Source of the DNA: Pseudobdellovibrionaceae bacterium
Lineage (GTDB): Bacteria > Bdellovibrionota > Bdellovibrionia > Bdellovibrionales > Bdellovibrionaceae
Direction of reading: 5' to 3'
Assembly (NCBI GenBank): GCA_041288045.1
Contig: JBGGMM010000152.1
Span: 1-22,525 of the forward strand
DNA length: 22,525 bases
Part shown: one piece after another, positions 11,420-15,233 of the stretch
Position numbering within the stretch: position 1 is the first letter of the stretch
Layout of the letters: the number at the start of each line of letters is the position of its first letter
Position numbers and translations under genes: made by a program
Notes under the pieces: model-generated
What the model was told of the DNA's origin: nothing
The model's input: only the letters and a program-made list of their open reading frames with translations
Databases searched by the model: none

Positions 11420-11442
11420 AGTAGTTGCTCTATACTTAGATT

Positions 11443-11462
11443 GAGTGAAAACTCTTTTTTTT
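11443..11462 (+). terminator. Possible weak intrinsic terminator
   Basis: GAGT-GAAA-ACTC hairpin (GNRA loop) followed by 8 T, 23 nt after the EEP stop. The stem is only 4 bp. Confidence 0.35.
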
Positions 11463-11500
11463 GTTGAATCTTTGAAGAGGACCGAGATATCTCCGGGCCT

Positions 11501-12454
11501 ATGAAAACATTCAAAACCATTTTATTTGCAGTTTTATTGGCAGTTTCTTTTTCCTCACAGGCACAGGATCTTCAAACTTCTGTTGAAAAAACAGAAACGA
11601 AGACAGCCCCCAAATGGAAAGCGGATTTCTACTCTTACTATTACAATTTTGCCGGCACAGAAGCTTCGAGCAAAGACGATGCACAGTATGATTTCGACGA
11701 TGCCACTTTGAATATGCAGCTGATGAGCTTGCAGTATCAATATTCAGACAAATGGACTTTTCAAGTGATGGCGACTTATCTCGATAACTATGTCGAGACC
11801 AAAATGTATGGACCTGGCGGCCTGACTGTTTATAAAGACCGCACCACAGGCATGGGAGATACTGTCTTTTCGGCATTCACGCCACTGTATGCCAGTGCTG
11901 AGGCTTTGGTGCTTGCAGATGTTGGGGTCTCAGTTCCGACAGGCGATATTGATCAAAAAAATGAATACTATCCTCAGTATCATTATGCCTACAACATGCA
12001 AAATGGCTCTGGCACTTACGATGCTGTGACTGGATTGACGGCTTTGAGTTTTCAGGGAAACACTCAGCTTGGCAGTCACTTGACTGGAATTTTTAGAAAC
12101 GGTCGCAATGCCAATGGCTATGGTCTTGGAAACTTATTTCGAGCCGATGCCTGGGTGGATTACAACACCAAATGGGGTCTGACACCAAGACTGGTCGGCT
12201 ACTACAAGCACAAAGGAGCTGTTCGAGGTGAAGATCAACAGTACAGCCCACGCGGAAACTCATTGGTTGAATTTTATTACCACGATCAAATCAATTGGGA
12301 TGTCTCGGCCGCTTTGAAATACAGCCAACCTGTCGGCCCCGTCGCCCTCTCTGCCGAAGTCGGCGCCCCTTTAGCCCAAGGAAGCCGAAATTACGACAAC
12401 GTCGTCGTCTCAACCGAATACTACGGCTCCTTGAACGTCGGCGGAAGCTTCTAA
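11501..12454 (+). CDS. Outer-membrane beta-barrel protein, probably COG4313/MetA-pathway-like channel
   Basis: Sec signal peptide ending SQA, aromatic-rich alternating strands, GMGD / GVSVPTG / MQNGSGTYD motifs, C-terminal Phe. Confidence 0.7.
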   Translation: MKTFKTILFAVLLAVSFSSQAQDLQTSVEKTETKTAPKWKADFYSYYYNFAGTEASSKDDAQYDFDDATLNMQLMSLQYQYSDKWTFQVMATYLDNYVETKMYGPGGLTVYKDRTTGMGDTVFSAFTPLYASAEALVLADVGVSVPTGDIDQKNEYYPQYHYAYNMQNGSGTYDAVTGLTALSFQGNTQLGSHLTGIFRNGRNANGYGLGNLFRADAWVDYNTKWGLTPRLVGYYKHKGAVRGEDQQYSPRGNSLVEFYYHDQINWDVSAALKYSQPVGPVALSAEVGAPLAQGSRNYDNVVVSTEYYGSLNVGGSF

Positions 12455-12500
12455 TTCTCCAAACCCTCGGCAGCAAAAACCCCTCAAGCCTCAAATTGAT

Positions 12501-12823
12501 CCCTCCTCCGAAAAACTTGCCAGACGACCACGATGGTCGTCTGGAAGCCTTCGCATGGACGGACCCACCCGCGTTTATCCTCGGCACCGCTGTGCTCGAG
12601 ACCCTCCATCCACGATGTTGACCGTCGGTACACCATACCAACGGACAACATCGTGGATGGGGTCGCCGCGAAGTCATTTAACAAAGTGGTGTGCGAAGCC
12701 TGCGTCTTCGCCTGATCGTGAACATCCATGTCCGTCTTTTCTGGAAATTCGGCCCTCCACGGCCTCACCCCTTCGGGGTCCGCCTTTGGCGGATTTCCAG
12801 AAAACCTAAAAGATTAGGAGGGG
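12501..12823. other. Highly structured GC-rich intergenic element (unassigned ncRNA or interspersed/MITE-like repeat)
   Basis: Perfect 11-bp hairpin at 12520-12544; 25-bp stem with 2 mismatches at 12606-12660; 12-bp perfect stem 12737-12748/12793-12804 enclosing three small hairpins; several further hairpins; bounded by CCCTCCT (12501) and AGGAGGG (12816). Confidence 0.75.
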
Positions 12824-12847
12824 AAGGGAAGTTGGTGGGTTTCGGCT

Positions 12848-15073
12848 TTAAATCAAAGCTCGAAGCTTGCTGCGATCGCCGACGATCCAGAGCAGGTCGG
12901 CGTTTTGGATTGTGAGGCTTGAATCTGGGTTGAGGATGCGATTGCTTTTTCTTTCGATGCCGACGACGAGGCCTGAGGTCTTTTCTCGGATGCCACATTC
13001 TCGGATGGTACGACCGATAAAAGGACTTTTATCGGTGACTAGATACTGCTCAAGGACGAAGGCTGAAGGATGGGCTTTGTCTTCACCAACTGGGATATAA
13101 AAAGTATTCAGAAAATTTTCAAATTCGCTGAGCTGCTCGTCGGTACCGATGACACTGACTCGGTCAAAAGGCATTAGCATTTCATTTCGGCTAGGGGCGG
13201 GGATCAGGCGATGGCCTCTTTGAATCATGGCGATAATGATTCCGAAATTTTCCCGCAATCCGAGTTGGGCCAATGTCTTTCAGACACATTCGGATTCTGG
13301 GTGGATTTCGTACTCGCTGAGATGGGCGTCCCAAGGGGCTAATTCCGGAGCCGGAGTCCGGGGGGAATTTCGCTGATGATGAACTTGTTTGATCAAGCGA
13401 TTTTCCAGGAAATGATAAACCGGTCCCATAAAGCGAAAAAGCGAAAGAGAAAGAGCGGCAAAAATCAAAATTGTCGTTAAAAGAACAGTTTGAAGAGACA
13501 CATACAGACTCAGAAGGCTTGAGACCAAAATCATGGCGAGCGAAATTCTTAGAATCGCAAAAAACTTGTGAACTCTTGGCGAAAACTGATCCCTGGCCAC
13601 TGCGATCAGTTCGGGTTTCTTGGTCTGGGCAAAAATAATCGCCCATAGAAAGGGGCTGGCCAGAAGCAACGACATCACAAGCGTGATCATGCGGGGCAGG
13701 CTTTCAGCTTCAGTGCGATTTTCGACAAAAGGATACAAAAAACGAGCTGAGAGAAGGAAAATCGCGATCACAACCACCATGTTGACAAAAATTTTCAAAA
13801 GATAACTGCGCAGCAAAGCTCGCCATTCAGAGTTGGCGCGGACGAGGTTTGAGAACTGCAGATACTGAAAGAGAAAATGCTGTGCTTTGGGTGGAATTAA
13901 TTTTTCAATTTGCGTGGCAAGAGTCGTTCGTGAGCGAATCAAATAAGGTGTGGTAAAAGTGGTCAAAGCTGAAACAGCAACAATGGTCGAATAAACTTTT
14001 TGATCGAGAACTTTCAGATTCATTCCAACTGAAGCCATGATGAAAGAGAATTCACCAATTTGCGCCATGCTGATGCCTGCTGGGATGGCAGTGGCCACAT
14101 TCTGTCCCGCCAGCAGAGCTCCGGTTGTGACATAATAGATCTTTCCGATAATCAAAACCCCAGCCAGCAGAAGAATGGTTCCAGGCTGGCTCATCAGGGC
14201 ATCGGGATCGATCATCATTCCGACAGAGACAAAGAAAACGGCCGAGAAGAGATTTTTGACCGGATGAAGAAGCTTATCGATTTTTTCTTTTTCATCGGTC
14301 TCACCTAAAATTGATCCCATGATGAAAGCTCCAAGAGCTGCTGAAAAGCCGGCCTGGCTGGCAGTCACCACCATCATAAAGCAGAGAGCCAGGGCAATAA
14401 TGAGAGTGCTCTCGTCAGTCAGAAGAGGTTTGACGGTCCGAATGGCCCAGGGAACAAGAAACAGTCCGATGACAAACCACCAGACCAGGTAAAACCCCAA
14501 TTTCCCAGCTGTCCACAAAAGTTCTGTGCCTTCAAATTGTCGGGAAAGACCCAAAGTGGTCAAAAGCACGATCAGAAGAACGGCCATTAAATCTTCAACA
14601 ATCAAAATGCCAAACACCAGTTGGGCAAAACGTTTGGCTTTCAATTGAAATTCTTCAAAAGCTTTAAAAATAATCGAAGTCGATGAGATCGAGATCATGG
14701 CGCCGAGAAAAAGACTTTGCAAAGTGGACCAAGACAAGATGAATTTTCCAACCATAAATCCCATCAGAAACATGGCTGTGATTTCAAAAAGTCCAATGAT
14801 CAGGACGGTGGATCCCATTTGTGCCAGCTTGCGAAAGCTGAAATCAATCCCAAGAGAAAAGAGCATGAAGATCACTCCCAGTTCGGCCCAAACTTGAATG
14901 CTCTGCATGTCTGTGATGTTGGGAAAAAAATGCGTGTAAGGACTGATCAGAAACCCCGCCAGCATATAGCCCAAAATCACTGGTTGTTTGAGTTTTCGGA
15001 AAATCAAGCTTGTCACAGCTGCCGTAATAAGAATGATGGAAAGGTCATGGATGAGCGGAGCAAGATGATTCAT
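12848..15073 (-). pseudogene. CPA2-family cation:proton antiporter with two C-terminal TrkA-C (RCK_C) domains, interrupted by an in-frame TGA at 13280-13282
   Basis: LKQPVILGYMLAG, AELGVIFMLFSLG, SISSTSII, GILIVEDL, ALGAFIMG, FFVSVGM, QIGEFSFI. ORFs 13280..15160 and 12848..13273 share one frame, separated only by the TGA. Start set at ATG 15073; 741 aa if the stop is read through. Confidence 0.85.
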
Positions 15074-15233
15074 ATCTCTATTGGAAATGCTGAAAGGCGA
15101 GAGATCAAGGATTGAAAAAAAACAGTTCCACGCAGGGAAATTTGCTAACAAAGAGAGCAATAACTCTTTGCATTAAATCAGCTAAAAGGGGTTTTCGTTG
15201 ACCCGGGAAGCTGGCTGTTTTTAGGTGGATGGC

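Follow-up and report, generated by a model that had tools for sequence, protein, structure and literature searches.

Structure and setting of the element

The window, a stretch of 22,525 nucleotides from a Pseudobdellovibrionaceae bacterium, contains a non-coding element at 12501..12823. Throughout, G000 denotes the genome of the window, C numbers its contigs, further G numbers other genomes of the family, and L numbers loci. As initially annotated, the element lies between two convergent genes. The left neighbour (11501..12454, + strand) encodes a protein of 317 aa, outer-membrane-like by inspection and without a Pfam match; the right neighbour (12848..15160, - strand) encodes a KefC-like CPA2 transporter with Na_H_Exchanger and TrkA_C matches. 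The transporter gene shows an in-frame TGA at 13280-13282 (- strand, codon 627), at a position where five homologues have Gly, and its TrkA_C domains are thereby split off. In G002 and G006, the 317-aa gene and its upstream region (11420-12847 in the window) have the opposite orientation: there, the gene follows the transporter gene in tandem, and the element is missing. One breakpoint of this inversion lies no more than about 20 nt from the transporter stop, beside the right end of the element.

The element is a near-full copy of a modular intergenic repeat with the blocks M1 to M7 in fixed order. It begins with a pyrimidine tract and linker (12501..12515, + strand) of the subtype seen in copies upstream of Y1 transposase genes of clade A, described below; positions 12503-12529 are 100% identical to a Y1-linked copy on contig C234, and the left tract is only loosely kept in other copies. 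Hairpin M1 (12516..12548, +) carries the loop box CCACGATGG at 12528-12536, and its stem co-varies across the family. The M2 box (12549..12565, +), with CATGGACGG at 12554-12562, lies 17 nt past the M1 loop box and forms a bipartite motif with it. The bulged hairpin M3 (12574..12603, +) is the outer end of the M1-M3 unit and often adjoins a stop codon in short copies. M4 (12606..12660) is a 55-nt palindrome in which a 25-nt arm is doubled in inverted orientation, and is followed by M5 (12663..12691, +), a weak and variable spacer hairpin whose pairing is the least conserved among the copies. M6 (12686..12736; 22-25 copies) combines a hairpin, with GCGAAGC at 12693-12699, and a CRTCCRTG box that is the reverse of the M2 box. 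The three-armed domain M7 (12737..12804, -) is the inverted counterpart of M1 and shows the triloops GAA and AAA on the - strand of the window copy. A poorly conserved right tail (12805..12823, +) consists of a small hairpin and a purine tract. We group the blocks into the units A (M1-M3), B (M4) and C (M6-M7).

Most of the structural description in the initial annotation could be confirmed. The G+C count of 176 in the 300 nt of 12501-12800 is correct (the G000 average is 46.5%), and the claimed strong folding is evident from RNA z-scores of -7.99 (+ strand) and -8.95 (- strand). When the element is folded as DNA, the z-scores of the two strands are -8.35 and -9.23. In all four tests, none of 100 shuffles matched the stability of the element. 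The hairpins at 12520-12544, 12580-12600, 12606-12660, 12693-12711 and 12805-12818 and the three-armed domain at 12737-12804 are placed as claimed and present in the minimum free energy (MFE) structure. The proposed stem GAACAT/ATGTCC (12720-12733) contains an A-C mismatch, leaves a loop of 2 nt and does not appear in the MFE structure of the + strand. The suggested pairing of the outer ends conflicts with the terminal hairpin: AGGAGGG (12816-12822) overlaps TTAGG (12814-12818), and the two cannot both form fully. No family of Rfam 15 reached its gathering score; three matches at E-value level lie far under threshold.

Copies within the genome

BLAST (E up to 0.05) finds 67 loci of the repeat in G000, and chance may account for the weakest of them. 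Long copies are 70-90% identical to the window copy, and both of its ends are spanned by 15 of the 30 best loci. A block scan showed that the order M1-M7 is fixed and that further blocks, M0 and M8-M12, occur outside both ends. Individual blocks differ in abundance, with 50 copies of the M4 arm, 39 of M3, 30 of M1 and 29 of M7.

The copies are unevenly placed, with a bias towards the 3' ends of genes. Crude gene calling identified both flanking genes for 43 of the 53 best loci, and the gaps of these 43 are convergent in 22, tandem in 19 and divergent in 2 cases, compared with 107, 421 and 204, respectively, among 732 background gaps of at least 100 nt. Short copies stop at block boundaries, and such ends lie at most 20 nt from a stop codon in 14 of 32 cases, against a per-base null of 5.6%. 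For the outer ends this holds in 5 of 64 cases, a biased figure since the repeat often runs on.

No sign of target-site duplication was found in 15 copies, where the longest direct repeat averages 3.9 nt in own flanks and 4.2 nt in crossed flanks. Terminal inverted repeats are limited to low-complexity tracts (5.8 vs 5.1 nt). A MITE of a DDE insertion sequence, which should show both a target-site duplication and conserved terminal inverted repeats, was rejected on these grounds. A circular master sequence was dropped as well, the outer blocks joining both ends in inverted order. Contigs from four DNA sequencing runs, the best of which may equal the source sample, contain block-level variants of the repeat and no empty-site joint; no RNA run was listed as containing it. 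Copies called for replication strand are split 10 to 8, with 43 uncalled, and the skew is too weak for a demonstration of bias.

We regard 12501..12823 as almost certainly one copy of a repeated, gene-less element and not as a unique RNA gene. The initial annotation had offered two options, an undescribed structured RNA and a non-autonomous interspersed element; the latter is supported by the number of loci, the modular build and the links to Y1 transposase genes.

Blocks in related genomes

At least one block was detected by BLAST in 16 of 182 genomes of the family, G000 included (four candidates scored per genome), while the whole composite occurs in none of the 181 others. M4 forms stand-alone doublets of the 25-nt arm in G002, with spacers that are short or about 30 nt long, and singles in G004 and in other genera. 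G006, G116 and further genomes have M1-M3 units as inverted doublets, and M7 is solitary in G007 and G084. Presence of the blocks is patchy among close relatives.

The hairpin-plus-box pattern CCACGAYGG-N12,26-CAYGGAYGG is matched in 30 of the 182 genomes, with two control matches in all; single matches may be due to chance. Spacing within the motif is nearly always 16-18 nt. Among 34 such units, selected from the retrieved loci, 96.1% of the stem cells are paired and two-sided changes occur at 7 of 9 pairs, which beats all shuffles (in cells and score) and all slid controls. The search pattern included only two inner stem pairs, whereas loop and box are invariant among the 34 units by construction; the same loop and box were also seen in relatives found by BLAST.

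Outside the family, the likeness of the multibranch module to repeats of other proteobacteria, suggested in the initial annotation, could not be confirmed in the plasmids, phages and genomes searched. Plasmid and phage searches gave two chance matches and none, respectively, and 300 other genomes of the phylum one weak match. A pattern scan of metagenomes returned five matches, none resembling the element. A viral scan returned 69 matches, of which 53 have no stem beyond the motif and none has more than three pairs, and which are thus attributed to chance.

The blocks are older than the composite: the units were fused to one fixed composite, which was amplified in the G000 lineage.

DNA or RNA

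Several features of the copies bear on the nature of the folded molecule. Five of 20 G000 copies have a flipped M4 loop, and the closing helix of M7 has lost its left arm in 10 copies and retains it in 18. One and the same 40-nt insert occurs in the loops of M1 and M7, oppositely oriented, which identifies the two as inverted counterparts. Departures from Watson-Crick pairing in the M1 stem, read on the + strand, are G-T in eight cases and A-C in one. The M7c loops, read on the - strand, are GCA (13), AAA (10), GAA (4), GTA (1) and ACA (1); 18 of these 29 fit GNA, and the last base is A in every one. According to the available text of PMC13037366, a GNA triloop with a closing C-G pair makes an extra-stable mini-hairpin in DNA and is weaker as RNA. 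M1 thus favours the + strand and M7c the - strand; such opposite preferences of the two halves resemble those of a doublet. M7b can be read either way, since the + strand would give a cUUCGg tetraloop.

Judged from sequence, the folded molecule is more probably DNA than one RNA, as indicated by the loop flips, the loss of the closing helix and GNA triloops of the DNA type. The first option of the initial annotation, one undescribed structured RNA, is at odds with these strand preferences, with the loop flips and arm losses, and with the solitary blocks of other genomes.

Link to Y1 transposases

The Y1 genes of G000 fall into three groups. The proteins of clade A, represented by P0001, keep the HUH motif in the form SHIH, and the Tyr is invariant in 48 homologues. 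Their best sequence match in the PDB is IS608 TnpA, while a monomer model has its best TM-score, 0.58, with TnpAREP. Clade A lies below both NCBIfam cut-offs, with 19.4 bits against a cut-off of 80 for NF047646 and also under that of NF033573. The motif YLILNQ of P0001 reads as Y-x4-Q or Y-x3-NQ.

The element ends around clade-A genes are ragged on both the 5' and the 3' side (9 leaders and 11 3' ends compared), and unrelated DNA sets in within the last codons at the 3' end. Seven of the nine leaders have blocks directly upstream, in a single orientation; five score at least 59 against M1-M3 of the window and two more match via the insert-bearing form only, compared with 1 of 552 control windows that reached a score of 40. 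On C242, a full M1-M7 array stands ahead of an intact clade-A gene. Y1 copies at different loci have linkers in common (C234/C189, 130 of 157 positions; C242/C12, 120 of 142), which suggests that blocks and genes have moved jointly.

In G123, a member of another genus, the motif lies at most 340 nt from 12 of 19 Y1 profile matches, upstream or downstream, and ten of these were viewed directly. G157 and G168 share one orthologous doublet, and 66 nt of the local Y1 gene lie between its units.

The link is not universal. In G006, none of 27 motifs lies within 1 kb of 29 Y1 matches when compared by coordinates. The G000 blocks are absent from 59 Y1 loci of relatives and from 24 clade-A loci of four genomes, four loci being common to both sets. 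The motif is absent from 30 further Y1 loci, one of which has an outer block. In G004 and G022, which contain M4, the search for clade A remained without a match at 1e-10, and in G084 the 17 motifs are accompanied by a single weak Y1 match; repeats are often unassembled, and such genes may therefore have been missed. Conversely, G001 has 41 Y1 matches and no blocks. A scan of genome contigs with the Y1 protein gave one weak, unrelated locus.

Two observations were made along with this survey. Clade-A leaders across genomes (L042-L047, L071-L090) keep the box GGGCGAAG, which is part of a small hairpin roughly 110 nt ahead of the gene start. In G001 (L086:1560-1800), a different repeat is tied to the same Y1 clade, with 47 matches, some of them free inverted pairs.

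Comparison with known systems

This comparison draws on the available parts of the papers cited by PMC number. The closest parallel is provided by REP, BIME and REPIN sequences with TnpAREP in E. coli and Pseudomonas (PMC3479197, PMC3116915, PMC8266576). These are likewise intergenic imperfect palindromes whose units occur as singles, inverted doublets and mosaics, with an HUH Y1 gene nearby, which in our case holds for G000 and G123 and not for G006 and other carriers. Strand-specific hairpins with a conserved loop resemble group-3 REPs, which are read through their loops (PMC8266576). TnpAREP binds one strand of the hairpin, and its cuts fall at varying distances to either side (PMC3479197); cutting of this kind fits the ragged ends of the element. 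The differences are equally clear. A GT[AG]G foot is absent at the M1 feet of 27 G000 matches on both strands (other blocks were judged by inspection only) and is not among the eight commonest M1 feet of the family loci; without GTAG feet, the element is not a canonical REP. Its units are longer and bipartite, and the composite comprises about 310 nt and seven blocks. Unlike the class 2 RAYTs, the clade-A proteins are multi-copy, lack Y-x3-NP and lie far below NF047646. By analogy, the element may work like a BIME or REPIN mosaic (PMC3116915), but without the GTAG feet and without a transposase of class 2.

The Y-x4-Q signature agrees with class 3 TnpA-Y1 (Quentin et al. 2018, PMC6006769, Table 1). 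That class also has several related genes per genome, atypical flanking structures that are dispersed as well, and a behaviour between IS and REPtron (PMC6006769). In contrast to it, we see no constant CnGA foot, which occurs in 1 of 27 G000 matches (minus foot) and in a minority of the family loci; clade A has SHIH instead of NHVH, and Phe for the conserved Trp. Bdellovibrio is not named in the available text and supplements of PMC6006769, and our literature search found no description of such repeats in Bdellovibrio.

With the IS200/IS605 elements IS608 and ISDra2 and the non-autonomous derivatives of this group, the linked Y1 proteins share the HUH motif, the catalytic Tyr, the TnpA fold and the best PDB sequence matches, as well as a multi-copy transposase and the lack of target duplication. 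They differ in that there are no fixed left and right ends with subterminal hairpins and no TnpB, and that they fall below the NF033573 cut-off. TIRtrons with TIRYT of subclass 2.1 (PMC3733652) are represented by one element in G000, on C213, and three of its TIR pairs enclose M1-M3 doublets; the window element itself is without a TIR of the C213 family.

Interpretation

Our preferred reading, to which we assign a probability of roughly 0.6, is that the element is a non-autonomous, BIME/REPIN-like mosaic that acts as folded single-stranded DNA and is spread by clade-A Y1 proteins. By analogy with TnpAREP and group-3 REPs, the clade-A HUH Y1 would bind hairpin-plus-box units of the M1-M2 type on exposed single strands, nick at loosely fixed distances and join strands. 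Units would be copied to new sites in this way, leaving ragged ends and no target duplication. Copies would persist mainly just past stop codons, and a role as terminator or as a 3' shield of mRNAs would be secondary only.

A serious though clearly less probable alternative accepts the same repeat and assigns it another mover. The blocks would then be passengers or targets of several mobile genes, such as the TIR-flanked subclass-2.1-like Y1 gene and multi-copy HNH nucleases, or template switching and host recombination would have spread them; the link to clade A would reflect local hitch-hiking. The M1-M3 doublets within C213-type TIR pairs at C104, C144 and C187 argue in this direction: the same TIR, with 51 copies in G000, flanks the clade-C Y1 gene at C213:12975-13718 (L035), the sole TIR-flanked subclass-2.1-like gene, which is situated between two flagellin genes. 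However, the downstream context of this gene is the same in G002, G004, G006 and G007 while the TIRs differ in each genome, and no blocks adjoin it. Several block carriers have no clade-A link, and G004 and G022 show a clade-C Y1 only; against this, a link of the clade-A type recurs in two genera. HNH genes are implicated by a doublet that brackets one of them in G099 and by M9, which lies upstream of 5 of the 8 HNH genes of G000 with visible upstream DNA, but the surroundings (600 nt) of 22 HNH pieces of G000 contain no M1-M7 block.

Two further explanations place the function in RNA. That the hosts keep the blocks as cis-acting structures at mRNA 3' ends (bidirectional terminators, nuclease blocks or ribosome-stalling elements) which spread secondarily appears improbable to us. 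The bias toward convergent gaps and stop codons would fit, yet it is also expected if harmless insertions survive there. On the - strand, M1 together with a T-run is scored as a terminator (chance expectation 0.7), G-T exceeds A-C in the stems, and the + strand cUUCGg reading of M7b would suit an RNA; on the other hand, the geometry of M7c admits a triloop only, the halves favour opposite strands, and presence is patchy among close relatives, the same gene pair being without the element in G002 and G006. Still less credible is a discrete, independently transcribed structured RNA of 320 nt. Its case consists of the very stable fold, the missing Rfam match and a long-range M2-M6 pairing that is conserved among full copies. 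Yet most copies are partial, loops flip and helix arms are lost, no promoter-like site is seen, and a search of the other 181 genomes of the family gave no whole composite.

Returning to the single-stranded DNA mosaic spread by clade A, a bolder and rather doubtful extension can be formulated. The clade-A proteins might constitute an undescribed class of HUH Y1 elements without fixed ends, which read a bipartite single-strand signal (the hairpin with the CCACGATGG loop and a CAYGGAYGG box about 17 nt away) and copy themselves with variable flanks. Each genome would thereby build its private hairpin mosaic and undergo local rearrangements, such as the inversion beside the window copy.

In known systems, the hairpins have GTAG feet and are paired with a transposase that is domesticated and low in copy number. 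The present unit is bipartite, has a co-varying stem and no GTAG, and is found in two genera next to a Y1 clade that is multi-copy and, it appears, mobile to this day; transposase-linked, deletion-type and free copies are all seen. The spread of REP-like repeats is described as still poorly understood in the available text of PMC8266576. Clade-A Y1 and the blocks make up a putative, well-defined pair of enzyme and substrate for testing and possibly offer a view of the step from IS to REPtron. For annotation, a word of caution is appropriate: very stable intergenic folds in this bacterial family are repeats and not new RNA genes.

Further observations on mobile genes

In the G099 case (L214:1058-2642), it is an inverted motif pair that brackets the HNH gene, whose stop lies inside the M1 arm; L214 also contains a long tandem tract of short units. 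The HNH nuclease genes of G000 are multi-copy, with tandem M9 about 240 nt upstream (seen at the contig ends C53, C65, C83, C133 and C151). Their layout equals that of the clade-A Y1 genes, and by eye a short leader motif is common to both. About 1.4 kb of other DNA interrupts a Y1 gene of clade B at C134:12086-13905.
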